DNA of 64,000 nt. Source: Acidobacteriota bacterium (GTDB taxonomy: Bacteria > Acidobacteriota > Vicinamibacteria > Marinacidobacterales > Marinacidobacteraceae). Both the position numbers and the translations under genes were made by a program. Under the pieces are notes generated by a model that saw nothing but the letters and a program-made list of their open reading frames with translations, was not told the DNA's origin and ran no database searches. Location: the NCBI GenBank assembly GCA_022822745.1, contig JAJEAO010000005.1, positions 17,831-81,830 of the forward strand, in the 5' to 3' direction. Shown in pieces: positions 4,901 through 45,317 of the stretch; positions within the stretch are counted from its first letter, which is position 1; each line of letters starts with the position of its first letter.

Positions 4901-5107
4901 ACGATCGTCCGCCGCGCGCTGGGCGCGATCCGGAAGCGCGTGGAGAGCCGGGAGATCACGAGAGACCGCGCGGCCATCGAGATCGTGGAGCTGGTGCGAA
5001 CCGAAGGGCTGCGGCCGGTGGAGGAGCTCGCGCGACTCGAACCGATCACCGAGGAGGATCTGGGCGTCGTCTGCTGGATGGAGATCCGCCCCACCGACCC
5101 GACCTGA
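1928..5107 (+). CDS. PLD/HKD-type nuclease domain fused to an SNF2-family (DEGH-box) helicase
   Basis: N-terminus has FLHGKAYLL...ALVTSANLTAAGL, which parallels the HxK...GSxN PLD/Nuc motif. Helicase motifs: GVGTGKT (I), LVLADEGHAFRN (II), LLTATPINNGLWDLYHL (III), VIVFSTF (IV), LLSNDVLSEGQNLQ and QRYGRVIRL (V/VI). Confidence 0.85.
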   Translation: MARPELVDNRGANTHAHALHALADDHDSRHPLAAATAYFNLIGLHHLAQATRDGRSGRLLLGTSRPTGGKSSTLDVFGACMEEFRRDRDHASFPPSRASKTLSDVLAWLQRDDIEVRRYLKQFLHGKAYLLGEIADARAALVTSANLTAAGLARNLELGVADYQPHVARSAIEWFDRLWEEAPDFKGDLIEILGSARLNLEDPWTVFLRALLELFGDDEEEIAKPGKVNLAPFQWDGYRRALKILRRHHGVVFADGVGTGKTMIGLAFLEEYALRRGQLAIVIAPAQLRERWQDDIAQRGLPAKVLSYHELASDIQLAPKDVANRKRHLSADKDAYRLVLADEGHAFRNPGTTWHRALSRLLGGEPKDLVLLTATPINNGLWDLYHLVMAFARHDRAFANWRIPSLRELFERAGASARKAADLDPDVLFALADLVSVRRDRRFLVERYKGETFPDGTVVRFPEPELHTARYDLDSADPGLVPTITEAIEGLTMARYVPSRYLVAGNESKREGQLSGLLRSGILKRFESCWHACRLTVKRMMRAHEAFLVAWDEGWVLGGQALKEAAEGEEEVSGLAETLAEDSFGDDRIPSSEFDPSYRKDVERDLAALRKIEARLDRLTPEDDPKLACLTDLIEKSPSQKVIVFSTFADTIRYLDEQLPEKIRGRERITVIGDEADPDQRTEMLSRFAPKSVIGPDHLPEDGEVDLLLSNDVLSEGQNLQQAAAVISYDMPWNPQRVVQRYGRVIRLKSEHRRVFLTTMLPAPGELEPILKLEVAIRRKMAAAGVYGMEVEVVEDAPASEVRAFADRLQAGDASLLDEAADGDEGQLFSGEGLRAELARWIHEMGIEKLKKLPWGTGAVFQRQSDDPRREEGGWFFACRTRRDERYWRWVERDRSTRPEPDAAILRRIHPRGAEGLMDGDYQPDEALEAAWSAAAASIVSEHNGLVEAAEDGDSIGPLQTWAIRDILEDPDVRLPDGANAAAEALAVGRGTIVRRALGAIRKRVESREITRDRAAIEIVELVRTEGLRPVEELARLEPITEEDLGVVCWMEIRPTDPT

Positions 5108-5183
5108 CCCGGTCGAGCCGGCGTCGGCGGCCTGCAAGGGTTGCCGCGGGGCTATCCTCACGCTTCCCGTCGGAAGTTCCGCG

Positions 5184-6389
5184 ATGAAGGTCCAGGTGAA
5201 TCCCGAGCTCCTTGTGTGGGCCCGGCGCACGGCGGGACTGGGGGTCGAGGAGGCGGCTCACCTGCTCCGGTTCGAGGACACCCGACGCCGAACAGCGGCG
5301 GAGCGGCTGGCCAGTCTCGAACGAGGGGCCGAGGCGCCGTCCCTTTCGGTGCTCGATCGGATGGCGCATCGCTACCACCGGCCTGTCCTCGCGTTCTACC
5401 TCGAGCACGCTCCCGAAGAAGAGGAGAGCGCCGCGCGGCTTCGTTCCGCCCCCGGAGACCTGACTCGCCGGGAGGCCGGCTTGCTGGATGCCTTTGTCCG
5501 ACGAATGCGCGAGCGCCAGCGTCTGCTGCGTGAGGCGCTCGAGGACGGTGAAGAGGGTGAGGTCGTCCCGTGGGTGGGGTCGGCGGATGTCCGCGACGGC
5601 GCGACGGCGCTCGCGGCTCGCATCCGTCGCCTTCTCGATCTGAATCTCACCGAGTTCCGCTCCCGGCGCGATGCGAGAGCAGGGTTCGAGTGGCTCCGGG
5701 GGAAGGTCGAGACCACCAGAGCGGTTGTTCTGCTCGAAGGCGACCTGGGCTCCCACCAGACGGCGCTAGAGCTCCACGTATTCCGCGGCCTCTCGCTTGC
5801 CGATCCGGTGGCGCCATTCATCGTCATCAATCCGGGGGACGCGGACGCTGCCTGGTCGTTCACGCTGCTCCACGAGCTGACGCACCTCGTTCTGGGACAG
5901 AGCGAGTTCGCGAGTCTGACGAGCGACGACCGCATCGAACGTCTTTGCAACGACGTGGCTGGGGAGCTGCTCGTGCCAGCGCGGGACCTTCAGGGACTCG
6001 GGCCGATGCGCGCACGCGATCTGGATCAGCTCCGCGACAGCATCTCGGATCTGGCCCAAGCCTGGCGCGTCAGCCGTTCGATGGTCGCCTACCGCATGTT
6101 CCGCACCGGGCTCATTCACCGCGATGAATTCCTATCGCTCCTGAGCACCTTCGAGCGGCGCTGGCAGAAAGCCAAGGAAGCTCGAAGAGCCGCGAATCGT
6201 ACGCGCCCGAGTGGTCCGGATTTCTATGCGGTGCGGCGCTATCGCTTGGGAAAGGCGATGATCCGACGGACGAAACGGTTGTGGCGGAGCGGGTCGTTGT
6301 CCACGACAGAGGCCGGGCGGATCCTCGGTGTGCGTGGCGGCAGCGTTCACGCTCTACTGGATGTCGCGAGCGAGCGAGCACGACGTTGA
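5184..6389 (+). CDS. HTH (XRE-like) + ImmA/IrrE-family zinc metallopeptidase regulator
   Basis: ATG at 5184 lies inside the longer track ORF 4785..6389, whose upstream part overlaps the helicase 3-prime end and looks non-coding. HEXXH motif in LLHELTHLVLGQSEF; helix-turn-helix-like N-terminal segment. Confidence 0.75.
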   Translation: MKVQVNPELLVWARRTAGLGVEEAAHLLRFEDTRRRTAAERLASLERGAEAPSLSVLDRMAHRYHRPVLAFYLEHAPEEEESAARLRSAPGDLTRREAGLLDAFVRRMRERQRLLREALEDGEEGEVVPWVGSADVRDGATALAARIRRLLDLNLTEFRSRRDARAGFEWLRGKVETTRAVVLLEGDLGSHQTALELHVFRGLSLADPVAPFIVINPGDADAAWSFTLLHELTHLVLGQSEFASLTSDDRIERLCNDVAGELLVPARDLQGLGPMRARDLDQLRDSISDLAQAWRVSRSMVAYRMFRTGLIHRDEFLSLLSTFERRWQKAKEARRAANRTRPSGPDFYAVRRYRLGKAMIRRTKRLWRSGSLSTTEAGRILGVRGGSVHALLDVASERARR

Positions 6390-6632: not shown

Positions 6633-9600
6633 GTGTGTGGCGCGCCGGGATGGGCGTGTTGGCGGGAGGGTGAAGCCGGGTTGGAGGCGGGGCGCATACC
6701 ATCGCGCCATGTCGTGGCGGCGCGGGGGGAAGCGCAGGGCGCGGATCCGCGAGAGGGCGGCTCCGTGACGCAACTCGGTGTGCGTCCGGACTCGGGCCGC
6801 AGCCGGTCCGAGCCGGCGTCATCCACCCCCGGCGTTCTGGTCCAGGAGCTGGATCGCATCGCGCGGGAAACCGGGAGAGCCCGCAAGATCCTGATCGGTC
6901 GCACGCGTGGCGAGGGGAAGGAGCTGCTGCGGCAAGTGGCGCTGCGTGGCCGCTCGTGGACGGGGTTCGAGGTCGAGACGTTACGACCCTTCGCTTCCCG
7001 AATCGCTGCGCCCCGCCTCGCCCGGGATGGCCTCGCGGTGATGGATTCGGTCGACGAGCACGCTCTCGTCGAGCGCGCCCTGGACTGCGTGATCCCGCGC
7101 TTCCCCGACTTCTCGGAACTCGCGGAGAAGACCGGGTTCCGGGAGGCGGTGCGCCACTCGGTGGCGGCGCTGCGAAACGCCGGCGTCCGGCCGGACGCCG
7201 TGGAGCCCCGTGGCGGAGATTCGCAGGGGTTCGACAAGACCTCGCTGGTGACGCAGGTTCTGGCGGCGTACGAGTCTCTGATGCGGGAGGCGAACCGAAC
7301 GGACACGGCGGGGATCCTCCGGAGGGCGACCCGGAGTCTCGACGGCGGCGAGCGCCCTCGCTGGCTCGCGGATGCCCGGATCTTCCTGCTCCCCGGGCTT
7401 CCCGACCGGGGACTCGAGAGAGGCTTTCTGGCTGCACTGCAGGGCCTCGGGGCGGAAGTTCTCCGGACCGACGCTGTGGAGGGCCTGAATGTCCCGGATG
7501 GAGTCCTCTGGGAGGCGGCGCCGCCGGAATCCTGGGGCAGTTGGCTCCACGCCGTGGATCGGTGCGAGGCGGGCGCTCGGTCCGACCGCATCGAGCTGTT
7601 CCGCGCGGCTTCGGTTTCCGACGAGTTGCGAGGTGTGCTGCGAAGGGCGCTGGACATGGGAGCCCGCTGGGATCAGGTCGAGATCGTCGCCGCCGACCCC
7701 TGGTCGTACGGGTCGGCGCTCCACGCGGTGGCTGAGGCGAAGGAGATCCCGGTCAACTTCGCGGTCGGCCTGCCGGTCGAGCGAACCCGTCCCGGAAGGG
7801 TCGTCTCGACCTGGTTCCGCTGGATCGAGAGCGGTTTCCAGGAGTCGCTCTTCCGGGCGCTCGTCGAGGCCGGCGATGTGACGCCGCCGGGGAAGACGCG
7901 ATCCAGGGGGTTGTATGGCCCGTCTCTTGCCCGGGCGCTGCGGCGGCTCCGGATCGGGTGGGGCAGGGAACGAACGCTCGAGAGGATCGAGCAGGGGCTC
8001 GAGGGCGTCAGCGCGCTTCGGCCCAAGCCCACCGAGAGCGAGGCGAAGTTCGAGGAACGCAGGAAGTGGGAGCGCAGGAAGTGGGAGCGCAGGAAGTTGA
8101 TGGCGCTGCGGGACCTTCTCCGTCCCGTGCTCGAGGCGACGCCGGCGACCGACGGTCAGGCCTCGCCGTCCGAGGTTGCGAGCGGCGTGAAGAGTCTGCT
8201 GAAGCGAGCGACAAGCGGCACCGCCACCGACGGCATGGCGAGGCAGCGGCTCCTGGGTCAACTCGATCGCATCGAGGCCACGTTGACGCGTCCCACCGAC
8301 TTCGCTTCGGCCTGCGCGATCGTCCAGGCCCGCCTCCAGATCCGCATCCCGGCGCCGGGAACGAAGGGGCTGGCGCGGTGGAGCACTGCGCCCGGCGCCA
8401 TCTACCTGACGGATCGGCGGCATGGAGGCGCCACCGGCCGCCGCTTCACCTTCATCGTCGGTCTCCATGCGCGGTCCGTGGTCGGCTCGCTCCACGAAGA
8501 TCCGCTGCTCGGCGACGAGGAACGGCGTCGCATCGGCGAGGGTGAACTGCCGCTCGCGTCTGACCGGGCGGATGAGGCCCGCTTCGACTTCGCCCAGCTC
8601 TTCGCTCGATTGCGGGGCACGGTCGTCGTCAGCTACCCGTGCTGGGATCCCGTCCAGAGCAGGAAACTGGCGCCGGCTCCCGAAATGCTTCAGGCGCTTC
8701 GGCTTCGCGAGTGCGATGCGGCCCTCGGCTTCGAGAAGCTGGAGAAGGCAATCGGCGTGGCCGAGTCGCGTGCGCCGCGTCAAGAAATCACCGCCGACCT
8801 CGACCGCAGCGATGCGTGGCTACGCGCTCTCACGAGGGAGCCAGGCCGATTCCGCGACGGACTGGCTGCCGTTTCGCGATCGTTTCCCCAGCTTGGCGCG
8901 GGCCTCGCCGTCGCTCGGGCCCTCGAGCGCGACGAGCCGTCGGTGCATACCGGTTTTCTCGGTGTCCATTCTCCGCCTCTCCCCTACCAGGATGTCTCGG
9001 GCTGGAAGTTCTCGGCGAGCGGTCTCGAGACCCTGGGTACCTGTCCCCGACGCTTTCTCTTCAAGTACATCATCAAGGCGTATCCGCCCGACGACCCCGA
9101 GTTCGATCCCGGCCGGTGGCTGAATGCGCTAAAGAAGGGAGGACTGCTTCATCGGGTGTTCGAGAAGACACTCAAAAAGGCTCGGTGCCGCGGGATCGAA
9201 CCTCTCGACTCCCAGTTTGAGATTCTTGCTCAAAAGGTGCTGGCGCTCGAGGGTCAGAAGGAGCTCCGGAACACACCTTCCCCGAGCCAGGCGGTGCACC
9301 GCTGGCAGATGGAGGAACTCCAGGAGGACGCTCGCTCCTTCGTCGAGATGATTCGCAAGCGGGAGCCGCAGTGGCTGAAGCTCGAATGGCCGTTCGGGCG
9401 GGACACGGATCTGAAGATCCAGGCCGGGCGTCGGTCCGTTCTAGTGCGCGGTTCCGTGGACCGGGTTGACGACCATGGCAGTCACCTGCTCGTGGTGGAC
9501 TACAAGACCGGCAGCGATTACAAGTACCAAGGTGAAACCAAGACCCACGACGGTGGACGGCGCCTGCAGCACTTCCTGTACGCCCGCGTGGTGGCCGACG

Positions 9601-9932: not shown

Positions 9933-12900
9933 GCGACGAGCGATCCGGACTCCGGTCGGTGACTGAGCGGTCCGTCACGCCTCGACGCCCAACGGCCCGG
10001 TACAGCGAACCCGGTGAGTCTCGCACCGACGTAGTCCCGGATGGGGAGGCGCGACGGCGCATCCGCAAGAACCTGGAGCGCAACTTCCTCGTGGAGGCGG
10101 GGGCGGGCTCAGGCAAGACGAAGTCGCTGGTGGACCGCATGGTGGCTCTGGTGAGCAGCGGCGCCTGTCAGGTGGAGGACATCGCAGCGGTTACCTTCAC
10201 GCGCATGGCTGCAGCGGAACTCCGCCAGCGCTTCCAGGAGGAACTGGAGAAGAAAATCGAGTGCGCGCACAAGCGCTCCCAAGCGGATGATCGGAAGCGC
10301 CTCGAACGAGCGCTCCGGAACATCCACCAGGCGTTTCTCGGAACCATCCACGCCTTCTGCGCCAGGCTGCTGCGCGAGCGACTGGTGGAGGCAGGGCTGG
10401 CTCCGGATTTCCGGGAACTGGAGGAGACCGAAGCGGAGCGCTCGAAGCAGGTGTTCTGGAACGACTTCCTGGAGAAGCTGGCGGTGAATGAGGATCCCGT
10501 TCTGCTCAAGCTCAAGCGCTTGGGGATCCGCCCCAGCACGCTTCAGGGAGCCTTCGGCAGCTTGGTCGAGAATCCGGACGTGGATTTCGTCGCCGAGAGG
10601 GTCGAGCGGCCGGATCCGGATGATGTCGCGGCGCTACGGGCCGAATTCGATGCTCTCCTCTACCGGGCAGAGGTGATGATGGAGGGCCTGCAGCCCAAGG
10701 AAGGGTGGAAGTCCCTTGGACAGGGATTCCGCACGGCGCTGTATTGGCACCGGTCGCCGAACTGGAAGGATCCGGCGGTCTTCTTTGAGGTCGTTGCCAA
10801 GTTTCACAGGATCAGAGAGAAGGAGACTGGGAAAATCCTGACGCTGAAACGGTGGGCCCGCACTCGCTCCGGCCAAAAAGAGGCGAAGAAGCTGGCCGAG
10901 GATTCCCAGGCCTTCGGGTGTAAGGCGGACAAACTGCTACGACAGTGGTGGGCTTACCGATATCCGGTGGCGGTGGATCTGGCCGGCAGGGCGGCGGAAG
11001 AGTACGCGTACGAGCGGAAGGCTCGGGGCGAGGTCACGTTCGACGATTTGCTCGTTTTCTCCACCGAGCTGCTTCGCAAGAACGACGAGGCGCGCCGCGA
11101 TCTGGGGCGCCGCTACCCGCGGATCCTCGTGGACGAGTTCCAGGACACCGATCCGCTGCAGGCCGAGATCCTGCTTCTCCTGTCCAGCGACCCCGAGTCG
11201 GGTGACGACTGGAGGAGAGTCACTCCCCGGCCCGGTTCGCTCTTCGTCGTCGGTGATCCCAAGCAGAGCATCTACCGATTCCGCCGCGCCGACATCTCGC
11301 TCTACGAGATGGTGAAGCGCCGCTTCAAGAAGTTCGGCGAGGTCCTGCGCCTCGAAGCGAACTTCCGCTCGCTGCCGGACTTCGAGAAACTGGTGGAGGG
11401 CGTCTTCAACGATGGGCAGCACTTCCCGAGCGCGAGTTCAGACCGCCAGGCCTCGTTTGCGCCGCTGCGGGCCCAGATGCAAGGGCGCGGTCTGCTGGCC
11501 GCCTACCGGGTTCAGGGCGCGAACCAGGACGATGTCGCCGAGGACGATGCCGCCCGCATCGCCTCTGAGATTTCGCGGCGGGTTCGATCGGGAGAGCGTC
11601 GGCCCGGCGCGTTCATGATCCTGACCGGGCGACGCAAGTTCCTGTCGGTTTATGTTCGAGCGCTCGAGAGGCGCAACCTCCCGGTCGAGGTGTCGGGCGC
11701 GGGCGTGGGTTTCGAGGACGAGTCGCGGGCGTTTCTGACGCTCTTCCGGTGTCTGGCGGACCCCCAGCACGAAGTGCACGTTCTTTCGGTGTTGACTGGG
11801 CCCTTCTTTGGCATGACCCTCGACCGCATCGTGCGGTACAGGGACAGCGGTGGCTCGCTTGTCGCCGATTGCCGGCCGGAGGGCGACTGCGAGGTCGCAG
11901 AGGCGATCGGGAGTCTCCACCGGTGGTGGTGTCTTGCGCGCCGCGAGCCCGCGGACATCACGGCCGAGAGGCTCGTGGAGAAGATCGGCCTCTTCCCCCT
12001 CGCGGCGGCGGCGCCCTTGGGAGGGATGCGTGCCGGGACTCTGGCGTACCTGCTGGACGCCGTGCGGGACCGGGCGCGAGCGGGCGATTCCTCGCTCGCG
12101 GGCGCCGTGGACGCCATGGAGACAGCGCTCGAAAACAAGGAAGCCGAACCGTCGTTGATCCCGACGCAGCCCGATTGCGTGCGCGTCCTGAATCTGCACC
12201 GCGCCAAGGGTCTCGAAGCTGACGTGGTCTTCCTGGCCGCGCCGTTTGGCGCCTCCGATCCCGATCCGCGGATGCACGTGTCGCGCCGTGAAAAGGGCAG
12301 CCCCGAAGGCCATCTGGCCGTCGGACTCAAGGTCCGATTTTCGTGGGAGACCATCGCGCAGCCCCTCGACTGGGAGGAGAAGAAGCGCAAGGAGGTGGAG
12401 TTCGCGAAGGCGGAACAGATCCGGCTGCTCTATGTCGCGGCGACGCGCGCAAGGCACGAACTCTGGATCGCGTGCCGCCCCGCCGAGATGTCCTGGCAGT
12501 CGAGGCCGTCACCGTGGGCGGATGTGGAGGAATGGGTGGTGGAGAGGGCCGGCAAGGACCGAGAGGCGGACTCGTCGTGCCACTGCGTTGTCCTGGACGA
12601 ACTGCCGAAGGACTGCGTGCCCAAGCCGGCCCGCCTGGAACCCGGGGAGGGTCTCACCGGGAGGATCAGGGCTGCCAAGGCGGGGGTGCGTCGGAGCCGC
12701 AAGGCGACCTACGCCGTGGAGAAGGTCACGGACCTGGCGAAACAGAACCGGCCGGAGGGAGAGGTCAACGTCTCCACGGAGCCGAGGGAGGCCGATACGG
12801 ACGACAAGGCTCACGCGCCGCTCGATCCCGGAACCAGGGGACGCGAATGGGGCACCGTAGTGCACGAGGTGCTTGCCGAGGCGGGCGAGGGGGTCGAAAG

Positions 12901-13421: not shown

Positions 13422-13943
13422 ATGAGGCGCTGTCTCGAAGCCTGCGGCGGAACACCGGTGCTTGGCGCGACCGGAGTCGCGACCCTGATCCTTCTCGTGG
13501 TCGGGTTTCCGGCCCTGCCGATCGGCGGAGAGATGCTCGATGTCCGGGGGGCCTACACCCATTCGGAGGCGCTCGCTGCGCTCGAAGGCTACGGCGAGGC
13601 CGGTCGGCGCGTCTATTTCTGGGCGAGCGTGACCCTGGACACGCTGCTCCCGGTCCTCTACGCCAGCTTCCTGGCCGGACTCCTCTACCGGTTCCGGCCC
13701 GTGGAACGGCTGTGGGGCCTCGCCTTCCTTCCGGTCGCGGCGGGACTGGTTGACCTGGGCGAGAACATCCAGATCCTCCTCATGCTTGCCCGGTATCCCG
13801 ACATCTCGGCGGGACAGGTGGCCGTCGCATCGCTCTTCACCTCGGCCAAGGGGGCCGCGGTGCTGGTCTGCCTGGGGCTCGCGCTCGCGTTCGCGCTCGT
13901 CGCAGGCGTTCGCCGGCTGCGGGCCGGAAGCCGGGGTTCGTAA
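13422..13943 (+). CDS. small integral membrane protein, unknown function
   Basis: ATG preceded by AGGAGG at the right spacing; ~4 hydrophobic segments. The in-frame upstream extension from 13185 is judged non-coding. Confidence 0.5.
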   Translation: MRRCLEACGGTPVLGATGVATLILLVVGFPALPIGGEMLDVRGAYTHSEALAALEGYGEAGRRVYFWASVTLDTLLPVLYASFLAGLLYRFRPVERLWGLAFLPVAAGLVDLGENIQILLMLARYPDISAGQVAVASLFTSAKGAAVLVCLGLALAFALVAGVRRLRAGSRGS

Positions 13944-14081
13944 CCGTGGTCGCGTGCCGGGCAGGGCCGCTACCGGGAGAACCGGCCCGGCGCGCCGGCA
14001 GGGGCCGCGCTGGCGGCGGCGGGAGGAACGCGATGCCGGGTGGGGGGCCCGCGGGTGGACCGACCAGAGCCGCACCGGCGG

Positions 14082-17646: not shown

Positions 17647-17927
17647 CGAAACTGAGAGATCTGAAGGAGCGCTTCATGCGGGACCCTGAGTTCCGCGAGG
17701 AGTATGCGCGCGCCGACGAGGACTACACGCTCGTCGAGGCCCTCGTCCGGGCTCGCCAGGCGGCGAACCTGACGCAGGCAGCTCTGGCTCGACGCCTGGG
17801 CACGACCCAGTCGGCGGTCGCGCGACTCGAGGGGGGCAGGGTATCGCCTTCCGTTGCCACGCTTCGCCGCTACGCCGAGGCAACGGACACTCGGCTGATT
17901 GTGGATTTCGTGTCGCGCGGCGGCTGA
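17643..17927 (+). CDS. higA: HTH XRE-family antitoxin (HigA-like)
   Basis: 94 aa; HTH LTQAALARRLGTTQSAVARLEGG; 4-nt overlap with the toxin gene. Confidence 0.75.
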   Translation: MTKLRDLKERFMRDPEFREEYARADEDYTLVEALVRARQAANLTQAALARRLGTTQSAVARLEGGRVSPSVATLRRYAEATDTRLIVDFVSRGG

Positions 17928-17997
17928 TTCTCGCCGGGGGGCGCCGGCAAGTGGCGCGCCGGCCGGGGGGAGCGCCGGCAAGTGGCGCGCCCGGAGG

Positions 17998-18309
17998 TCA
18001 GACGGTGGCGGTGGCCTTGGCGAGTCTCCGGGCGAGGTGTTCCTCGACCGCCGCGCAGGGGACGAACATCGGCTTATGATCGAGCTCGATGCGAATGGAG
18101 CAGCCCCCGCTCCCGGTCTCCGCGATCTCCCAGATCCCGGCGAACTCGCCGAGCGGCGTCGGCAACGAGAACTCCCCGAATCCGGGCCCCGCGCCGGGAC
18201 CAACGTCCCCGGTGATCGTGCCCCCGAATCGTGCGAAGTCGGCGCGGAGCGCGGGAAGGAGTCGGTCCGGCGTCACCGAGAGCCGGAAGTCGAATTCGCA
18301 CGCAGCCAT
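17998..18309 (-). CDS. hypothetical protein
   Basis: 103-aa ORF with strong GC3 bias, 18 bp downstream of the M20 peptidase gene on the same strand. No recognisable motif. Confidence 0.4.
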   Translation of the reverse strand: MAACEFDFRLSVTPDRLLPALRADFARFGGTITGDVGPGAGPGFGEFSLPTPLGEFAGIWEIAETGSGGCSIRIELDHKPMFVPCAAVEEHLARRLAKATATV

Positions 18310-18327
18310 GGAACGGGAACCGGTGCG

Positions 18328-19629
18328 CTACGGGGCCTGCGGCTCGAAGCCGGCTTCGGCGAGGATCAGGAGCATCGCCTTCTGGATTCCGAGATGCCCG
18401 TCCCGGTTCGCCCACCACTCGTGGAGCGAGTGGGCGCCGAACCCCTCGCCGCCGCTCCCGATCGTGGTGGCGGGAATGCCGAGCGAGATCGCCACGTTGG
18501 AGTCGGTGGAGCCCATGCTCAGCTCGGGCTGGGCGCCGACCGCCCGGGTCGCGGCGAATGCCCGCTGGATGAGCGGAGTGTCCACCGGGACGATGCCCGA
18601 CGGGCGGTTTCCGATCATCTCGATATCCACGGTCAGCTCCTGGCCGTCGCGACGGAGCTCGTTCTGCTCGGCGAGGGCGTCGCGCATCGCCGTCTGGAAG
18701 ATGGCGTCTATCTCGTCGAGGCGGCCCGGCTCCATGGAGCGCATGTCCACCTCCATCCAGTTCTCGGCAGGGATCGAGTTGATCGAGGTGCCGCCTCCGA
18801 TGCGGCCGATGTTGTAGGTCGTCTTCGCCCCGGAGGTCACGTACTCGCCGGCGCGGTCATCGAAGAGCTTGATCGCCCGGGCCATCGCGTGGGCCGGGTT
18901 GCCGAGCCCGAACGCGCCCCAGGAATGTCCGCCGGGCCCGCGGAAGCTCACCCGGTAGCGGTGCGAGCCGATCGCGTGGTTCAGGACCCGGGTGTTGCTC
19001 GTGCCGTCTATGGCGATGAAGGCGTGGATCTCGGGCGCCCCTTCCCGGAACAGGTGCTTCACGCCGCGGAGATCGCCGAGCCCTTCTTCGCCGACCGACC
19101 CGACGAACAGCACATCGTCGCTGGTCTCGAGACCGTGGCGGTCCATCAGCTCCATGATCGTGAGCATCGTGACCAGGCCGCGCGTGTCGTCGGCGATCCC
19201 CGGAGCCATGAGCTTGTCGCCCTCGCGGCGGACGGTCACATCGGTCCCCTTCGGGAACACCGTGTCGAGGTGAGCCACCACTGCCACGGTGCGGGCGCCA
19301 CCGGAACCGGCGCGCCGCGCGATCACGTTGCCGACGCCGTCGAGATCGGCTTCGAGCCCCAGACCGCGGATCATGCCGCGGTAGTGCGCGGCCCGTTCCT
19401 CCTCCATGAACGGCGGCGCCTCGATCTCGGTGAGCTCGATCAGCCGCCGCTCGTTCTCCGGGTCCATGGCGAGGACATCGTCGAGCGCGGCGCCCACCCT
19501 CGGGTCGGCGCGGATCGCATCCAGCTCCGCCTGGTACTGCGGCAGGATCTCGATGCCCTGCGCCGAGGCGTCCATCGGGATCACGGCGCAGGCGAAGAGG
19601 AGAATCGGGAGGACGCGGCGCTTGGGCAT
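18328..19629 (-). CDS. M20-family metallopeptidase (ArgE/DapE/peptidase T-like), secreted
   Basis: Signal peptide LLFACAVIPMDASAQG. HLDTV, GIADDTRG and VGSVGEEGLGDLRG metal-binding blocks. Confidence 0.85.
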   Translation of the reverse strand: MPKRRVLPILLFACAVIPMDASAQGIEILPQYQAELDAIRADPRVGAALDDVLAMDPENERRLIELTEIEAPPFMEEERAAHYRGMIRGLGLEADLDGVGNVIARRAGSGGARTVAVVAHLDTVFPKGTDVTVRREGDKLMAPGIADDTRGLVTMLTIMELMDRHGLETSDDVLFVGSVGEEGLGDLRGVKHLFREGAPEIHAFIAIDGTSNTRVLNHAIGSHRYRVSFRGPGGHSWGAFGLGNPAHAMARAIKLFDDRAGEYVTSGAKTTYNIGRIGGGTSINSIPAENWMEVDMRSMEPGRLDEIDAIFQTAMRDALAEQNELRRDGQELTVDIEMIGNRPSGIVPVDTPLIQRAFAATRAVGAQPELSMGSTDSNVAISLGIPATTIGSGGEGFGAHSLHEWWANRDGHLGIQKAMLLILAEAGFEPQAP

Positions 19630-19775
19630 GGGCGCCGAATGCTATCCGAGGGTCCGTTCGCTTCCGCGCTTCGAACGGTCCTCTCCGCGGGGCCCCGGCG
19701 AGGGCGTGGGGCCGTCACGCGCGGCCCGAAGGCCTCCGAGGCTGACGCGCGGTTCACCGGCCGCAGAATAGGGAC

Positions 19776-22700
19776 ATGAATGGATCGTCCCGCCCCCGGA
19801 TCCCGAAGCCCGTCCGGCCGCGCCGGAAGTCGGAGGGTCTGTCGCTGCCCGCGCTCCTCGCCGCCACCGGACTGATCGCCGGCTCCGCCTTCGCCGGCGC
19901 CCGGGAACCGCTCGCGCTGCTGCCGCCCCTGGAGTGGCGCTCGATCGGGCCGGATCGCGGGGGCCGTTCGATCGCGGTCGCCGGCCATGCCGACCGGCCC
20001 TTCGAGTACTACTTCGGGGCGACCGGCGGCGGGTTGTTCAAGACCACGGACGGGGGGATCACCTGGGCGCCGGTCACCGACGGACAGATCGGGAGCGCCT
20101 CGGTGGGGGCCGTCGCCATGGCGCCCTCCGACCCCGACATCGTGTACATCGGCATGGGCGAGGTCCAGCTTCGGGCGAACGTCCTCCAGGGAGACGGCGT
20201 GTACCGCTCGGACGATGGCGGCGGAACCTGGCGGCATCTCGGTCTCGCCGAGACCCAGGCGATCGGGCGCATCCGCATCCATCCGACGGACCCGGACCGG
20301 GTGTGGGTGGCGGCGCTCGGCCACCCGTTCGGATCGAATCCGGAGCGGGGCGTCTTCCGGACCGGAGACGGCGGAGCCACCTGGGAGCGGGTGCTCTTCC
20401 GCGACGAGCGCACCGGCGCCGCGGATCTGATCCTGAGTCCGACCGATCCGGAGATCCTCTACGCGACGCTGTGGGAGGTTCATCGGCGGCCGTGGCATCT
20501 CTCGAGCGGAGGCGTGGGATCCGGGATCTTCAAGTCGAACGACGGCGGCGACACCTGGCGGGAGATCACGCGCAACCCGGGCCTTCCCGGGGGCCTGCTC
20601 GGCAAGATCACGGTGGCTGTCTCGGGCGCCGATCCGGACCGGGTCTGGGCCAATCTTGAGGCCGAGCGGGGCGGGCTCTACCGATCCGACGACGGGGGCG
20701 CGTCGTGGGAGTTCGTGAACGGCCACCGGGACATCTGGCAGCGCGCCTTCTACTTCCAGCGCCTCGTGGCCGATCCGGTGGAGCGCGACACCCTCTACAT
20801 CCTGAACTTCCGCCTGATGCGCTCCACGGACGGCGGCAGGACGCTCGAAAGCGTGCCCGAGACCCACGCCGACCACCACGACCTCTGGATCGATCCGACG
20901 AACCCGCGACGCATGATCAACGGCAACGACGGGGGAGGGGTGGTCACGGTGAACGGGGGCCGCACCTGGACCTCGATGCGCTATCCGACGGCGCAGATCT
21001 ACCGGCTTTCCACGACCCCTGACTTCCCGTACCACGTCTGCGGGGCACAGCAGGACAACACGACCGTGTGCGTCTCTTCCGAGGCCTCCCCGATGCGGAA
21101 TCCCCGCAGCCCGCCCACGGAATGGATGTACGCGGTGGGCGGCGGCGAGAGCGGTTACGTCACCCCGCACCCGTCGCAGCCGGGGATCTTCTACGCGGGC
21201 GCGACGAACACGCTCACGCGCTACGACCGGGCGACCGGCCGGATCGCCGACATCCAGCCGTGGCCGCGCATCGTCATGGGCGAGCCCGCCCGCGGGATGC
21301 CCGAGCGGTGGAACTGGACCTACCCGATCGCGGTCGCGCCGGACCCGCCGCACGCGCTCTACGTCGGGTCCCAGCACCTGTGGCGGTCCGCCGACGAGGG
21401 CGCCTCGTGGGTCCGGATCAGCCCGGATCTGACCCGCGCCGAACCCGAGACGCTCGACGACTCCGGCGGACCCATCGTGAAGGACCAGGACGGGCCGGAG
21501 ATCTACGGCACGCTCTACTCGATCGGGCTCTCTCCCCACGACCCGCAGACGATCTGGACCGGATCGGATGACGGCCTCGTCCACCTCTCCCGCGACGGCG
21601 GCGGGGTCTGGCGGGATGTCACGCCTCCCGACCTGCCGCCCCACACCCGCGTCATGAGCGTGGAGGCGTCCCCGCACGATCCGGCCGGGGCGCTGGTGGC
21701 CGGGATCCGCTACGAGATGGACGACCGCTCGCCGTACGCATGGAAGACCGAGGACTACGGCGCGACCTGGACGCGGATCGGGGACGCCATCCCGGATGGC
21801 GCCTTCGTGCGCGTCCTCCGGGAGGACCCGGCCCGCGCCGGGCTCCTCTACGCCGGAACCGAGCGCGGCGTGTTCGTCTCCTTCGACGCGGGTTCGCACT
21901 GGAGCGACCTCTCCCTCCGGCTGCCCGACACGCCGGTCACCGGGATCGTCGTGGAGGAGCGCGACCTGGTCATCAGCACCCACGGGCGCTCGTTCTGGGT
22001 GCTCGACGACATCGAGACGCTGCGCCAGCTCGACGAGGGAGTCGCCGCCGCCGAGGCGCACCTCTTCCGGCCCGCCGCCGCCGTCCGGCGATCGGTTCCC
22101 GCGGTGCTGGATTTCCACCTGGGCGGCTCCGGGGGTCCGGCGCGGCTCGAGATCCTCACCGAGGACGGCGAGCCGGTGCGAACGCTGGTGGACGAACGGC
22201 TCGAGGGGGGCGTCCATCGGGCCCGCTGGAATCTCCGCTATCCGGGCGCCGTGACCTTCGACGGGATCGTGCTGGAGGGCGGCAATCCGGCGGTGGGGCC
22301 GTGGGCGCCGCCGGGGCGCTACCGGGCGCGGCTTACCGCGGCCGGGGTCACCCGGGAGCAGGTCTTCGAGGTTCGACGCGACCCCGCTCTCGCGGATCTG
22401 CCGGAGGCCGCGTTCACCGATCAGTTCCGACTCGCGATTGCGATCCGGGACGCCGAAAGCCGGGCGAACGAGGCCGTCGTTCTGGCGCGGGACCTGAGCT
22501 GGCAGATCGAGCGGGTTCTCGCCCGGACCGGGCGGGAGGAGCTCGGGGCGGAGGCGTCCCGCTTCGCCGCCGAGGTCGAGGCGGTCGCGGGGGAGCTCTA
22601 CCAGCTCCGGAACCAGAGCCCCAAGGACAAGATCGCGTTCCCGATCCAGCTCAACGACCGGCTCACCGGCCTCCGCAGCCACCTGGAGCGGGGCGACGGA

Positions 22701-22877
22701 ACCCCGCTCGCTGCCTACCGCGCGGTCTTCGAGGAGCTCTCGGTCGAGCTGGACGCCCACCTCGGCCGCATGGGTCGCCTGCTCGGGGAGGATCTGCCGC
22801 GTCTGAACCGTCGGCTTGCCGCGGCGGGGCTCCCTTCCGTCCGGATCGAGCGCCTGTCTCCGGACCCCGGTGGGTAA
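19776..22877 (+). CDS. secreted BNR/Asp-box repeat protein (sortilin/VPS10-like, GH74-like fold)
   Basis: 1033 aa; signal peptide. Many S/T-x-D-G-G-x-T-W Asp-boxes (TTDGGITW, SDDGGGTW, TGDGGATW, SNDGGDTW, SDDGGASW, STDGGRTW). Confidence 0.8.
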   Translation: MNGSSRPRIPKPVRPRRKSEGLSLPALLAATGLIAGSAFAGAREPLALLPPLEWRSIGPDRGGRSIAVAGHADRPFEYYFGATGGGLFKTTDGGITWAPVTDGQIGSASVGAVAMAPSDPDIVYIGMGEVQLRANVLQGDGVYRSDDGGGTWRHLGLAETQAIGRIRIHPTDPDRVWVAALGHPFGSNPERGVFRTGDGGATWERVLFRDERTGAADLILSPTDPEILYATLWEVHRRPWHLSSGGVGSGIFKSNDGGDTWREITRNPGLPGGLLGKITVAVSGADPDRVWANLEAERGGLYRSDDGGASWEFVNGHRDIWQRAFYFQRLVADPVERDTLYILNFRLMRSTDGGRTLESVPETHADHHDLWIDPTNPRRMINGNDGGGVVTVNGGRTWTSMRYPTAQIYRLSTTPDFPYHVCGAQQDNTTVCVSSEASPMRNPRSPPTEWMYAVGGGESGYVTPHPSQPGIFYAGATNTLTRYDRATGRIADIQPWPRIVMGEPARGMPERWNWTYPIAVAPDPPHALYVGSQHLWRSADEGASWVRISPDLTRAEPETLDDSGGPIVKDQDGPEIYGTLYSIGLSPHDPQTIWTGSDDGLVHLSRDGGGVWRDVTPPDLPPHTRVMSVEASPHDPAGALVAGIRYEMDDRSPYAWKTEDYGATWTRIGDAIPDGAFVRVLREDPARAGLLYAGTERGVFVSFDAGSHWSDLSLRLPDTPVTGIVVEERDLVISTHGRSFWVLDDIETLRQLDEGVAAAEAHLFRPAAAVRRSVPAVLDFHLGGSGGPARLEILTEDGEPVRTLVDERLEGGVHRARWNLRYPGAVTFDGIVLEGGNPAVGPWAPPGRYRARLTAAGVTREQVFEVRRDPALADLPEAAFTDQFRLAIAIRDAESRANEAVVLARDLSWQIERVLARTGREELGAEASRFAAEVEAVAGELYQLRNQSPKDKIAFPIQLNDRLTGLRSHLERGDGTPLAAYRAVFEELSVELDAHLGRMGRLLGEDLPRLNRRLAAAGLPSVRIERLSPDPGG

Positions 22878-22887
22878 TCTCGCCGCC

Positions 22888-25023
22888 ATGCGCCTTCCGG
22901 GTTCCGTTCCTCTTCTCCTCCCGCTCTTTCTCGCGCTCGCTCCGCCGACCGTCCTGGCGGGGCAGGGGAGGGCGCCCGGCCCGGAGCGGGTCATGGTGCT
23001 CGGGTTCGACGGCGCCGACCCGGACACGATCGCGGCCATGATCGCCGACGGAGAGCTGCCTCACCTCGCCGCCCTCGGCGCGCAGGGGACGCTGGCGCCG
23101 CTCGAGACGACGAGGCCCTCGGAGTCCCCGGTGGCCTGGGCCACCTTCGCCACCGGCATGAACCCGGGGCGCACCCGGATCTTCGACTTCCTCGAGCGGG
23201 GAGAGGGGGGGTACGCGCCGCGGATCGCGCTCGTGCGGCAGGGGACGCTGCGTCTTCCGGGAATGCTCACGCGCGTCGCGCTGCTCGGGCTCCTTGCAGC
23301 GCTCGCCGCGGTGGTCGGGGGTCGGCTCGCGGGGAACCGCTTCGGTGCGGCTCGGGTGCGGGCCGTCGCCGGCCTCCTCGTCCTCGGGATCCTCGGTCCG
23401 GTCGCGATCTTCCTGCCCGACGCGGCGCCGCAGGCGGTCCGGGCCCGGCAGGGGCCGGCGTTCTGGGCGGTCGCCGGCGCTGCCGGCGTGCCTGCCGTCG
23501 CGCTCATGGCGCCCATGGAGTTTCCGGTGACCGAATCGCCCGGCGCCCGGATCCTCGCGGGGTTCGGGACTCCCGACGTCCGCAAGTCGTTCGGCCTCTG
23601 GTCCGTGTACACGACCGACCTGCTCGATGAGGAGTCCACCGAGACCGGAGGGACGCGTTTTCCGATCCGGTTCGAGGATGGAGTCGCCCGCAGCATCGTC
23701 CGCGGCCCGCGGGATTTCACGGAGTCCCCCGACGAGCGGGAGCAGTCCGAGGTCGAGATCCCCGTCGTCTTTCGCCGGAGCGGGGAAACGCTCTCGATCG
23801 AGGTGAGCGGGACCACGGTCGGGCTGGCGGTCGGGGAGTGGTCCGACTTCGTTCCGGTCTCCTTCGCCCTGAACCCGATGGTCCGGGTGTACGGGCTGAC
23901 CCGCTTCCGGTTGCTCGCGCTGGAACCGAACACGACGGTTTACATGGAGCCGATCAACTTCGACCCCGAGCGACTGCCGCCGATCGTGGATCTGTCGTGG
24001 CCTCCGGGGTTCGCCGGAGACCTCGCGGAGCGCTCCGGACGCTACGAGACGATCGGCTGGAAGATCGTGACGAATCCACTTCGCGACGGAGATCTCGACT
24101 TCGAGGCCTTCCTCGAGGACACCCGTTTCGCCCGGGAGACGAACGAGCGGCTGCTCCTGGATGCGATCCGGGAGGAGGACTGGAAGCTGCTGGTCTCGGT
24201 GTTCCTGTTCCCCGACCGGGTCCAGCACATGATGTTCCGGTTCGCCGACGAGGAGCATCCGAACCACGACCACGAGCTCGCCGAGCTCTACGGCGGCGAG
24301 ATCGCAGAGGCCTACCGGGACATGGACCGCATCGTGGGCGAAGCCGTCGCCGCGGCGCCGCCGGGAACCCGCTTCCTCGTCGTCTCGGACCACGGCTTCC
24401 ACTCGTTTCGCAAGCAGTTCAACGTGAACACCTGGCTGGCGCAGAACGGCTATCTCCGGCCGCCCGCCGAGTCGGAGGAGAGGAGACTCGAGGACCTGTT
24501 CGACCCGGATGCGCTGTTCTTCCCCGGAGTCGAATGGAGCCGGAGCGAGGCGTTCGCGCTGGGGTTGTCGGGGATCTACTTCAACCAGCGGGGGCGCGAG
24601 CCGCAGGGCGTCGTCGAGCCGGGGGCGGGCCGGGATGATCTTGCCGAGCGGCTGATCCGGGACCTCCTCGCCTTCCGTGATCCCGAGACCGGAGAGCCGG
24701 TGGTGCGCGTCGTCCACCGGCGGGAGGACATCTACGAAGGAGAGTTCGTCGAGGAGGCGCCCGATCTGATCCTCGGGCTGGAGCCGGGTTACCGCATCGG
24801 CTGGCAGAGCACGCTTGGGGGTTTCCCGGAGGCGGCGATCACGCCGAACCTGGACGACTGGAGCGGCGACCACTGTTCCATGGAGGACACCGCGGGCGTG
24901 CTGGTGTCGGACCTGCCTCTCGCCGCCCCCGCCGCGCTCCGGGACATCGCCCCCACGGTGCTGGATCTGCTCGGCGTCCCGCCGCCGCCGGACACCGACG
25001 GCCGGTCCCTGTTCGGTCCATGA
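22888..25023 (+). CDS. alkaline-phosphatase-superfamily type I phosphodiesterase / nucleotide pyrophosphatase-like protein
   Basis: ATG at 22888 (the track ORF opens at 22816). LGFDGADPD and SESPVAWATFATGMNPG metal-site blocks; N-terminal signal peptide. Confidence 0.7.
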   Translation: MRLPGSVPLLLPLFLALAPPTVLAGQGRAPGPERVMVLGFDGADPDTIAAMIADGELPHLAALGAQGTLAPLETTRPSESPVAWATFATGMNPGRTRIFDFLERGEGGYAPRIALVRQGTLRLPGMLTRVALLGLLAALAAVVGGRLAGNRFGAARVRAVAGLLVLGILGPVAIFLPDAAPQAVRARQGPAFWAVAGAAGVPAVALMAPMEFPVTESPGARILAGFGTPDVRKSFGLWSVYTTDLLDEESTETGGTRFPIRFEDGVARSIVRGPRDFTESPDEREQSEVEIPVVFRRSGETLSIEVSGTTVGLAVGEWSDFVPVSFALNPMVRVYGLTRFRLLALEPNTTVYMEPINFDPERLPPIVDLSWPPGFAGDLAERSGRYETIGWKIVTNPLRDGDLDFEAFLEDTRFARETNERLLLDAIREEDWKLLVSVFLFPDRVQHMMFRFADEEHPNHDHELAELYGGEIAEAYRDMDRIVGEAVAAAPPGTRFLVVSDHGFHSFRKQFNVNTWLAQNGYLRPPAESEERRLEDLFDPDALFFPGVEWSRSEAFALGLSGIYFNQRGREPQGVVEPGAGRDDLAERLIRDLLAFRDPETGEPVVRVVHRREDIYEGEFVEEAPDLILGLEPGYRIGWQSTLGGFPEAAITPNLDDWSGDHCSMEDTAGVLVSDLPLAAPAALRDIAPTVLDLLGVPPPPDTDGRSLFGP

Positions 25024-42945: not shown

Positions 42946-44211
42946 TTGCCGGAGACCCGACAGCCGATGGATCGAGACGAAGGTCGGGCAGGAAGCCGTC
43001 CGCCGACCCCGCCGATGCTCGGCGTCGGGCAGGCGGTGGCCGAGATCGCCGCCGGCCGGATGGTGATCGTCGTGGACGACGAGGATCGCGAGAACGAGGG
43101 GGATCTCACGATCGCGGCCGAGAAGGTGACGCCGGAAGCGATCAATTTCATGGCCACGCACGGGCGCGGTCTGATCTGCATGCCGATGACCGGGAATCGG
43201 CTGGACGAGCTCCAGATCCCGCTCATGGTTCAGGAGAACACCTCGAGCCTCGAGACAGCGTTCTGCGTGTCCGTGGAGGCCCGGCGCGGCGTGACCACCG
43301 GGATCTCGGCGGCCGACCGGGCGCGGACGATCCGGGTCGCCATCTCTCCCGAAGCGCGGCCTGCGGATCTGGCGCGGCCGGGCCACGTGTTCCCCCTGCG
43401 GGCCCGTCCCGGCGGCGTGCTGCAGCGGGCCGGACAGACCGAGGCGGGGGTGGACCTCGCTCGCATCGCCGGCCTCTATCCGGCGGCGGTGATCTGCGAA
43501 GTGATGAACGAGGACGGCTCCATGGCCCGTCTGCCCGATCTGGTCGCCTTCGCCGAGACGCACGGAATGGGGATCGTGAGCGTCGCCGACCTGATCAGGC
43601 ATCGGCTCCGCCACGAGTCGCTCGTCCGGCGGCTCGCAGAGACCGTGCTTCCCACGGAGTTCGGCATCTTCCGCACCCTGGCCTACGAGAACACCCTGGA
43701 TGGCTCGAACCACCTGGTTCTTCAGTTGGGGAAGGCCGCGCCGGAGCGTCCGGTGCTGGTCCGGGTCCACAGCCAGTGCCTCACCGGAGAGGTGTTCGGT
43801 TCCATGCGGTGCGACTGCGGGCCCCAGCTTCGGGCGGCGCTCGCGGCCATCGGCGAGGAGGGCAACGGAGTTCTGCTCTACCTGAACCAGGAGGGTCGGG
43901 GCATCGGCCTCGTGAACAAGCTGCGCGCCTACGCCATGCAGGACACCGGGCTCGACACGGTGGACGCCAACACGCATCTCGGTTTCCGGGCCGATCAGCG
44001 CGAGTACGGGGTCGGCGCGCAGATCCTCCGTCACCTCGGGGTCGGGCGGATCCGGCTGCTCACGAACAACCCGCGCAAGTTCGTCGGGCTCGAGGCGCAC
44101 GGCCTCCACATCGAGGAACGGGTTTCCATCGAGGTTCCCGCCAACGAGCATTCCCGCGCCTACCTGCGAACCAAGAAGGAGCGGATGGGGCACTTGCTCA
44201 CGGAGGTATGA
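42946..44211 (+). CDS. ribBA: bifunctional 3,4-dihydroxy-2-butanone-4-phosphate synthase / GTP cyclohydrolase II
   Basis: [17 protein letters not shown] (DHBP synthase) and [16 protein letters not shown] (GTP cyclohydrolase II zinc site). Start is 42946 or ATG ~43015. Confidence 0.9.
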
Positions 44212-44220
44212 CAGCGCCCC

Positions 44221-44720
44221 TCTATGGAGCGCCGGTCTCCAGACCGGCACCGCAATGGAATCCGGCTGGAGTCGAGAATTGCCACTCTGGAGAGTGGCGC
44301 TCCATAGGAACGGCGCTGCGCACTGCCGGCGCGCCGGGCCGGTTCTCGCGGTAGCGGCCCCGCCCGGCAGTGCGTACGATGGCGATGCCGAGAGGTAGCG
44401 CGAATTGCCGCTCTGGAGAACCCCTACCGGGAGAACCGGGGCGCTCCACACGAAAGCACCTGCTGCATGACACGCGGTGCCGCTCTGGAGAACCCCTACC
44501 GGGAGAACCGGGGCGCTCCATAGGAACGGCGCTGCGCACTGCCGGCGCGCCGGGCCGGTTCTCGCGGTAGCGGCCCCGCCCGGCACGCACGAACTGCCGG
44601 CCTCCGCCGGCTCTCCCGGTACCGGCCCTGCCCGGCACGTTGCCGGCGCGCCGGGCTCCCGCCCGGCACGATGACGCCGGCGGCGGGGCGCCACCCTGAC
44701 TGGCCGCGGCCGACTGGTAC
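44221..44720. repeat. Cluster of nested direct and inverted GC-rich repeats / stem-loops in the ribBA-efp intergenic region
   Basis: A ~72-bp unit (cgctccataggaacggcgctgcgcactgccggcgcgccgggccggttctcgcggtagcggccccgcccggca) occurs at ~44298 and ~44514. A 41-bp unit (ccgctctggagaacccctaccgggagaaccggggcgctcca) occurs at ~44408 and ~44479. A shorter variant (gccactctggagagtggcgctcca) is at ~44281, and an inverted copy (tatggagcgccggtctccagaccgg) at ~44222. The palindromic core tgccggcgcgccgggc appears 3 times, and the cccggcac motif is reiterated up to ~44670. Confidence 0.7.
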
Positions 44721-44744
44721 GATCGCCCAACAAGGAGTCTCCGC

Positions 44745-45317
44745 TTGGCCATCACCTACGCGACGAACGAATTCCGGACCGGACTCAAGGTTCTCCTCGA
44801 CGGCGACCCCTGCGTTCTCGTCAAGTGCGAGTTCGTGAAGCCGGGAAAGGGGCAGGCGTTCACCCGCATCCAGTACCGGAACCTGAAGACGGGCCGCGTC
44901 CTGGACAAGACGCTGCGTTCCGGCGACAAGGTGGAGGCCGCCGACGTCGTGGACACCGAGATGCAGTACCTCTACAGCGACGCCTCCGAGTGGCACTTCA
45001 TGGATCCGAACACCTACGAGCAGTACTCCGCCACCCGGGAGGCGTTCGGGGGGTCGGAGAAGTGGCTGCAGCAGGGCGTCAACTGCGGCGTGACCCTCTA
45101 CAACGGCGCCGTCCTCCTCGTCGCCCCGCCCCACTTCGTGGAACTTCGGGTCGTCGAGACCGAGCCGGGGATTCGCGGCGACACCGCGACCGGAGGCTCC
45201 AAGAACGCCACGCTCGAGACCGGCGCAGTGGTCCGGGTGCCGCTCTTCATCGAGGCCGATGAGACGCTCCGGATCGACACCCGGACCGGCGAGTACGTCT
45301 CCCGGGTGAAGAGCTGA
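44745..45317 (+). CDS. efp: elongation factor P
   Basis: 190 aa with a KPGKGQAF loop (the modified Lys); TTG start. Confidence 0.95.
   Translation: MAITYATNEFRTGLKVLLDGDPCVLVKCEFVKPGKGQAFTRIQYRNLKTGRVLDKTLRSGDKVEAADVVDTEMQYLYSDASEWHFMDPNTYEQYSATREAFGGSEKWLQQGVNCGVTLYNGAVLLVAPPHFVELRVVETEPGIRGDTATGGSKNATLETGAVVRVPLFIEADETLRIDTRTGEYVSRVKS

Follow-up and report, generated by a model that had tools for sequence, protein, structure and literature searches.

The window analyzed here, i.e., a stretch of 64,000 nucleotides (positions 17,831 to 81,830 of contig JAJEAO010000005.1, assembly GCA_022822745.1) from an Acidobacteriota bacterium of the class Vicinamibacteria, raises the question of what fills the spacer between its genes ribBA (42946–44211, plus strand) and efp (44745–45317, plus strand). 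From the stop codon of the upstream gene to the start codon of the downstream one, this spacer measures 533 bp (44212–44744) and consists nearly entirely of reiterated hairpin modules. An earlier note on the same DNA had already described a spacer of reiterated units between these two genes (with a length of 530 bp), and had hesitated between an array of the repetitive extragenic palindrome (REP) or bacterial interspersed mosaic element (BIME) type, a miniature inverted-repeat transposable element (MITE) and a structured non-coding RNA. In our analysis, the spacer is best read as a BIME-like cluster of interspersed repeats that are non-coding, form hairpins and belong to a REP-like family, in which inverted doublets of the type known as REPINs (REP doublets forming hairpins) are common; we would put the probability of this reading at about 0.72.

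Three types of modules make up the cluster: a core hairpin unit (module A), a second hairpin (module C) and a composite unit. Module A reads TGCC-NNN-CTGGAG-N'N'N'-GGC-GCTCCA(TA), in which a stem of 7 bp encloses a TGGA loop and the tail is invariant. On the complementary strand, where the tag comes 5′, the 25–28-nt unit becomes (TA)TGGAG-C-GCCNNNC-TCCA-GNNNGGC-A, with fixed ends; its 4-nt loop and its stem, 7 bp long or 8 bp when a T-G or C-G pair closes it, are those of a canonical REP hairpin. The boundaries of the unit are sharp, with T at one end and GCTCCA(TA) at the other. Across 104 copies for which only loop and tail served as anchors, 713 of the 728 stem cells are Watson–Crick pairs, the central stem pair being GC, CG or AT (48, 45 and 7, respectively). 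Among 40 distinct sequences, 95.7% of the stem cells are paired, against 29–56% in slid controls, and 30 stem cells are changed on both sides, versus 10.4 in shuffles (a value reached by none of 500 shuffles). Compensatory changes were found at three stem pairs, and the hairpin stem is maintained by them. In 148 hairpin-anchored copies, the successive bases of the tail were counted as G146 C139 T120 C139 C139 A106, a conservation that is partly built in, as one copy per locus was picked by a pattern containing the tail.

These units are widely dispersed through Vicinamibacteria and further soil bacteria. A scan of species-representative genomes with the pattern TGCCNNTCTGGAGAN{2,24}GGCGCTCCA returned at least 73 loci (here and below, individual loci of genomes and metagenomes are designated by numbers preceded by L). 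Of these, 48 fall in one complete chromosome of 3.88 Mb (OZ246946.1), a metagenome-assembled genome (MAG) of Vicinamibacteria, as 8-kb places that do not overlap, and these 48 places hold at least 111 hairpin copies. The window is 83% identical to this chromosome over 6 kb (17996–23955), and its organism is related to that MAG. Further core-unit copies occur in other Vicinamibacteria and Acidobacteria MAGs, and several in a MAG of 46% GC. All the other modules of the cluster recur in OZ246946.1, the composite at 95–98% identity (L026, L070), while a non-syntenic locus of a different MAG (L009) carries both module C and an 89-nt doublet (93–181) that is 96.6% identical to that of the window. 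When metagenomes were scanned with a generalized unit, 92 places were recovered on contigs of 46–72% GC, where the unit mostly forms the right arm of an inverted doublet whose left arm reads GGAGCGCC-stem-CTCCnG-stem-GGC; viral contigs yielded no match to the unit. The repetition described for the spacer itself exceeds chance: no match to a 44-nt probe is expected in shuffles, and GGCGCTCCATAG has 4 matches versus 0.39 expected. The earlier note had considered that units found nowhere else would speak for a private duplication; they were found at many unrelated sites, and the copies in a related genome, in Acidobacteria and in metagenomes lend support to its REP/BIME-type or MITE-like array. 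Matches with a gap of 3–24 nt in unrelated phyla (L023, L032, L036, L038, L067, L071, L076) were discarded, about six chance matches being expected from a back-of-envelope estimate. Separately, a single 25-nt copy of the pattern lies in Haloferula sargassicola (L012, 6958–6982), between the domains of a xanthine-dehydrogenase-type gene, and may be either a chance match (about 0.3 expected in the whole collection, by a rough estimate) or an in-gene insertion.

The way in which the copies are arranged in OZ246946.1 is that of REPs, i.e., they are many, mainly extragenic and present in both orientations. At least 64 of the 111 copies (at least 58%) are clearly intergenic, compared with about 18% of non-coding DNA, and most of the others lie where our crude open reading frame (ORF) calls, which cover 82% of the DNA, over-extend through stop-free repeats. 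Relative to co-directional flanking genes, 20 copies have the same orientation and 19 the opposite one, and tandem, convergent and divergent gene contexts are all represented. Tail-out inverted doublets account for 31 of the 59 neighboring pairs, with spacers of 26–33 or 51–54 nt falling into recognizable subfamilies, doublets are matched in frequency by sharp-ended solo units of 25–28 nt, and tandem arrays have periods of 26, 76, 80–97 and 124 nt (L021, L028, L042, L077). Inverted doublets that fold as one hairpin, together with mosaic clusters and tandem arrays, constitute the organization of REPINs and BIMEs.

In the window, the cluster begins with such a doublet (44222–44307, 86 nt), which is REPIN-like and tail-out. 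Its left arm is the core unit A0 (44222–44249), which reads TGCCGGTCTGGAGACCGGCGCTCCATAG on the minus strand, its right arm is the core unit A1 (44280–44307, plus strand, TGCCACTCTGGAGAGTGGCGCTCCATAG), and the 30-nt spacer between them (44250–44279) gives the doublet the minus-strand form GGCA-ATTC...GCGG-TGCC, a spacer subfamily also encountered in OZ246946.1 and L009. The two arms form a 28-nt inverted repeat that is 86% complementary, their stems show compensatory differences (AC/GT versus GG/CC), and the doublet folds as a single strand at −53.8 kcal/mol (z = −7.5). Both arms had been spotted in the earlier note, A0 as an inverted copy at the 5′ boundary and A1 (at 44280–44304) as a shortened third variant of a repeated unit. 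Module C is an imperfect hairpin of 46 nt (consensus TGCCGGCGCGCCGGGCCGGTTCTCsCGGTAsCGGCCCyGCCCGGCA) that follows on the plus strand at 44324–44369 (TGCCGGCGCGCCGGGCCGGTTCTCGCGGTAGCGGCCCCGCCCGGCA) and 44540–44585, then as a variant at 44595–44637 (TGCCGGCCTCCGCCGGCTCTCCCGGTACCGGCCCTGCCCGGCA) and in a truncated form at 44641–44668 (TGCCGGCGCGCCGGGCTCCCGCCCGGCA), which is the last repeat before unique sequence. The palindrome TGCCGGCGCGCCGGGC, reported earlier as occurring three times, is indeed found at 44324, 44540 and 44641, each time with CCCGGCA after it. The composite, in which the 3′ half of the module A stem is swapped for a 20-nt inverted piece of module C, occurs twice on the plus strand, first at 44406–44448 (5′ half of the core, 20-nt insert ACCCCTACCGGGAGAACCGG, tail GGCGCTCCA) and again, in an identical copy, at 44478–44523 with the full tail GCTCCATAG. 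The duplicated units previously given as 41 bp and about 72 bp are therefore present, but at other sizes: the former is a 43-nt unit (44406–44448 and 44478–44520) whose 90% identity extends over 58 nt, and the latter an exact duplication of 74 nt on the plus strand (44296–44369 and 44512–44585), comprising a unit tail, a 16-nt linker and module C, with 216 nt from one copy to the next; the second copy of module C lies inside the second duplicate. One more copy of module C stands alone elsewhere in the 64 kb (13952–14001, minus strand); it is 94–96% identical to the copies at 44.3–44.6 kb and begins 8 nt past a TAA stop codon (13942–13944, read from the sequence); it is the only other family member recovered by short-word BLAST in the 64 kb, the first within-window probes having straddled module borders and missed it. 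We also considered a clustered regularly interspaced short palindromic repeat (CRISPR) array and rejected it: the spacing is irregular, the units are mixed and inverted, and the would-be spacers are themselves repeats.

REP/RAYT systems, in which RAYT stands for REP-associated tyrosine transposase, have mostly been studied in Proteobacteria, and REPs, REPINs and BIMEs are reportedly accompanied by such enzymes (also called TnpA-REP) in E. coli, Pseudomonas and Stenotrophomonas (Nunvar 2010; Bertels & Rainey 2011; Di Nocera 2013). The present family resembles them in its GC-rich imperfect palindromes of 25–28 nt, one foot of which is marked by a short conserved tag, in its extragenic location, its two orientations and its many copies, in its inverted doublets able to form long hairpins (REPIN) and its mosaic clusters and arrays (BIME), and in the coexistence of several subfamilies in one genome. 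According to the rules that define REPs (PMC6006769), these elements have a tetranucleotide tag, a GC stem and a short loop, with GT[AG]G as the tag. GTAG repeats have been described in Proteobacteria, Cyanobacteria, Chloroflexi and the Planctomycetes–Verrucomicrobia–Chlamydiae (PVC) group, while only Y1 transposase genes flanked by terminal inverted repeats (TIRs) are given for Acidobacteria (Di Nocera 2013, PMC3733652). Highly similar, in layout as well as in sequence, are the REPs flanking tnpA-REP genes of subclass 2.7 (Quentin et al. 2018, PMC6006769, table S1), with GTAGCGCCGGCCTCCGTGCCGGCG for DtieA01 and GTAGGACCGACCTCCAGGTCGGTCC for DcetA01. In a by-eye alignment, 17 of 24 positions match between the DtieA01 REP and the tag-5′ strand of our family (GGAGCGCCGGTCTCCAGACCGGCA), and the DcetA01 REPs share the TCCA loop of the GGAG family, while the second base of the tag differs (T in subclass 2.7, G in the GGAG family); such a likeness might also arise by convergence, as GC-rich hairpins can come to resemble each other. 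We take the strain code DtieA01 to be Desulfomonile tiedjei and DcetA01 to be Desulfobacca acetoxidans, and subclass 2.7, again going by strain codes, presumably extends to Acidobacteria (SusiA01, Solibacter) and to Bacteroidetes/Ignavibacteria (IalbA01 and others). Hairpins associated with class 3 TnpA-Y1 transposases are known from Acidobacteria and Planctomycetes, with about 600 copies in Solibacter usitatus, and their published motif C[n]GAGCCGCGACCGT[n]AGGGAGCG has CnGA as its foot and a stem that is weak and bulged (PMC6006769). Those hairpins and ours have in common a high copy number in Acidobacteria and a foot other than GTAG, but we rejected membership in this Solibacter type (CnGA foot, bulged hairpin of the GCCGCGACCGTnAGGGAGCG type), since both sequence and structure differ from the published ones. 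Other candidates, namely mimics of tRNA or tmRNA 3′ ends, a CsrA sponge (GGA loops), integron attC sites, uptake signals similar to the DNA uptake sequence (DUS) and omega-RNA ends, were dropped by reasoning only, on the grounds of the occurrence on both strands, the inverted doublets and the lack of the motifs that define them. Searches of the accessible literature returned no published account of the GGAG hairpin family or of such elements in Vicinamibacteria, and those made with the unit sequence strings returned primers only.

Several observations weigh against the REP-like reading. The tag is GGAG, within a longer block (T)GGAGCGCC, whereas canonical REPs have GT[AG]G or CGTC; neither of these stands 0–2 nt from the foot in our family, and among 85 copies only about 4 have GTAG on their 5′ side. 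The organisms that share the unit sequence are far more distant from one another than those sharing a REP usually are, and its occurrence on contigs of 46–72% GC is unusually broad for one such family, while the window itself has only two family sites in its 64 kb. Using tblastn with E. coli RayT and two scans for HUH...Y motifs, we detected no HUH-Y1/RAYT-like ORF in the window, nor in the genome loci (about 0.66 Mb) and metagenome loci (0.48 Mb) covered, while E. coli RayT was recovered as a positive control; this is a weak negative, because a genome has one to a few RAYT genes and the search covered about 10% of OZ246946.1. Likewise, no gene family recurs beside the motif, at most five loci sharing any one of them, and no terminator-like U-tract appeared in a scan of 43900–45000. 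Since the defining tag is missing, we do not file the family as canonical REPs: it is a REP-like variant. The cluster is likewise not a new kind of system, and represents ordinary interspersed hairpin repeats with a non-canonical tag in a little-studied phylum.

As to how such a cluster could arise, the units would spread as single-stranded DNA hairpins, the tag and stem of which would be recognized in trans by a RAYT-type tyrosine transposase of the HUH (Y1) class, whose gene would lie at another place in the genome. Clusters would then form as new units insert within or beside those already there, and the local array probably also grew by one segmental duplication with a period of 216 nt. 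In E. coli, BIMEs can block 3′ exonucleases or terminate transcripts in part. By analogy, the array, with the rib operon ending on one side and a promoter-like element of efp on the other, might protect the 3′ end of the rib transcript against exonucleases or partially terminate it. Both the mobilization by a Y1 transposase and the role as terminator or attenuator are what we infer. A "REPtron" candidate located between inverted copies in L028 was rejected, as its gene looks by eye from the translation like an ordinary HD-domain-like one, with no family search run. In Ca. Marinacidobacterium, a segment of about 350 nt is repeated (L060, 3426–3812 and 4132–4488; L072, 1700–3628), and an ORF resembling an IS1634/IS4-type transposase (by eye, with no family search) lies near motif copies at four loci, across which it has no consistent spatial relation to the motif.

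It is possible, though on balance doubtful, that the GGAG hairpin (GGAGCGCC-stem-TCCn-stem) constitutes a distinct and ancient REPIN lineage, served by an unrecognized branch of Y1 transposases with an altered tag specificity (G in place of T as the second base) or by a different enzyme. If so, it would add a third tag class beside GTAG and CGTC and offer a natural test of how RAYT proteins read their guide tetranucleotide. More generally, a high-copy family from Acidobacteria with a tag that differs by one base and with a widely conserved sequence would extend the range of REP-type elements and help to study how Y1 transposases recognize their tag. On the practical side, MAGs of Vicinamibacteria and other soil Acidobacteria can be screened for such repeats with the 25-nt signature TGCCNNNCTGGAGNNNGGCGCTCCA.

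At face value, the 86-nt doublet could also be a MITE, i.e., what deletions have left of a DDE-type insertion sequence (IS) of the IS630/Tc1-like kind, moved by cut-and-paste with duplication of a TA target, in which case the solo units would be decayed halves. Like MITEs such as the Correia elements of Neisseria, it is a short, non-coding and intergenic doublet with TIRs (here of 28 nt), TA flanks and the potential to form a long hairpin, TA bordering the window doublet on either side, as it does most of those in OZ246946.1. A longer version of about 130 nt, with an outer inverted repeat (CACTGCCCCGG...CCGGGGCAGTG) around the doublet, exists in the metagenome Ga0335078 (L099, L109, L119, L151, L157), and was also seen in L173 and L174. 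Yet the TA is more simply viewed as part of the unit, because it is found after solo units too, and after each unit in tandem arrays of uniform orientation, and the two bases after CTCCA vary outside OZ246946.1. In addition, the basic unit of the GGAG family is a single hairpin of 25–28 nt that also exists alone, sharp-ended and as frequently as the doublets, and in head-to-tail arrays, the two arms of doublets often differ while each stem remains self-complementary, and we found no transposase ORF between inverted copies, no recurring transposase family nearby and no parent IS. An empty-site comparison covering about 19.4–19.9 kb of the window was made at an orthologous divergent intergenic region where OZ246946.1 has a doublet (L073, 3640–3760) and the window (about 19640–19760) has around 100 nt of unrelated sequence of similar length; the difference looks like a replacement rather than a clean insertion, and yields no target-site information. 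Altogether, we regard a MITE origin as unlikely.

Another explanation would be that the motif is a site for a host factor or a regulatory signal (terminator, RNA-stability hairpin, protein-binding site or uptake-type signal) kept by selection. It would account for the preservation of the TGCC, CTGGAG and GGCGCTCCA blocks on contigs of 46–72% GC from several phylum-level groups and for the low-copy form seen in other Acidobacteria, which is fused to a second covarying hairpin, while the copies after the stop codon near 13952 and after ribBA occupy positions suited to a 3′-end element. However, the orientation of the copies is unbiased with respect to genes, they are also found in divergent promoter regions, and their number varies strongly, from at least 111 in the sampled part of OZ246946.1 to none around efp in three relatives. 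Nesting, tag duplication and tandem amplification are moreover typical of mobile repeats, which makes selection for a host signal an improbable account. The low-copy form itself was observed in L033, L034, L039, L046, L047, L060, L066 and L072, where the second hairpin is fused on the 5′ side of the unit as (G)TTTCG-hairpin-CGA-TGCC..., its sequence differing from genome to genome while its pairing is kept. A copy in reverse orientation in the ribBA–efp spacer of L082 (9826–9872) is listed with this fused form. We rejected the idea that such single copies represent a conserved single-copy RNA gene, their genomic contexts being unrelated and not orthologous.

A locus-specific structured RNA (leader, riboswitch or small RNA) controlling efp or the rib operon, which the earlier note had left as an option, is largely refuted and now very improbable. 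The region does fold well below shuffled controls on both strands (z = −4.5 for the plus and −6.3 for the minus strand), and the fold and covariance analysis proposed in that note bears out its stem-loops, the stems being 96–98% paired with compensatory changes. Nevertheless, no Rfam family matched at the gathering threshold in the window or in 18 related loci (at E ≤ 10, the region gave only miRNA-type hairpin matches, far below threshold and attributable to chance), and these units turn up in either orientation at dozens of sites whose contexts are unrelated. The ribBA–efp arrangement is present in the relatives L080 and L082. Intergenic lengths, the comparison of which had also been suggested beforehand, were compared as well: in three relatives with an EF-P that is 81–88% identical, the spacers upstream of efp are 290–370 nt long, lack module A and have other hairpins instead, module A being absent from the 20 kb around efp in each of them. 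As relatives lack the array at the same spacer, it is presumably not required for efp.

Four other metagenome contigs (L001–L004) encode an identical EF-P and match the 3′ part of the spacer base for base over 104–351 nt, and all four stop inside the repeats, the break falling in the TGCCGGCGCGCCGGGC palindrome, CTGCGCAC or GGTAGCG. From this exact match in independent contigs ending within the repeats, it follows that the sequence is real and that the repeats break short-read assemblies at the efp locus; the array explains both the unusually long spacer and the break of the four contigs at that point. For the segment 44212–44393 and for the number of 216-nt periods, the support comes from the window alone, and this number could be mis-assembled, because exact 74-nt repeats flank the period. 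Although the exact duplicate with its 216-nt period, the breaks in the array and the segment known from the window only are what a private tandem duplication or an assembly artifact would produce, this last explanation hardly deserves credit, given that the 3′ 351 nt are identical in independent assemblies, that every module type is present in other genomes, and that a local duplication accounts only for the last growth step of the array.

To return to the interspersed-repeat cluster and its surroundings, the final 76 nt ahead of efp are unique sequence free of repeats. They include an extended −10-like element, TGGTACGAT (44715–44723, plus strand, read from the sequence), and AAGGAG at 44732–44737, ahead of the TTG start codon of efp, which is itself followed by a gene of 231 aa of the tRNA-synt_2 type (EpmA-like). 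The TGGTACGAT element is kept 22–45 nt 5′ of the efp start in the window, in L079 (about 9948–9956) and in L082 (about 9956–9964), even though the spacers are otherwise unalignable, while L080 carries TGTTACCAT in its place. A scan of 43900–45000 for sigma-70 promoters and intrinsic terminators found neither. Based on the element common to the relatives L079 and L082 and on its position downstream of the repeats, efp probably has its own promoter just past the cluster, and the array probably separates the transcription of the rib operon from that of efp, which is relevant to operon prediction at this locus.

Finally, a few features of copies found outside the window are worth mentioning. In the MAG of 46% GC (MAG_12, L025), units form head-to-tail arrays with a period of about 32 nt (4100–4140, 5780–5920 and 7540–7720), and these sit between genes of a phage-like region, including a terminase large subunit (4428–5762); a contig of this MAG bears a type IX secretion system (T9SS) sorting domain, and its GC content is far below that of Acidobacteria. 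The tail GGCGCTCCATA is often found two or three times straight after one hairpin, with a period of 10–20 nt (L021, 1960–2100; L022, 7483–7530; L027; L028, 4705–4745; L040; L069). The TGGAG of the loop is complementary to the CTCCA of the tail, so that an alternative hairpin of 5 bp is possible.

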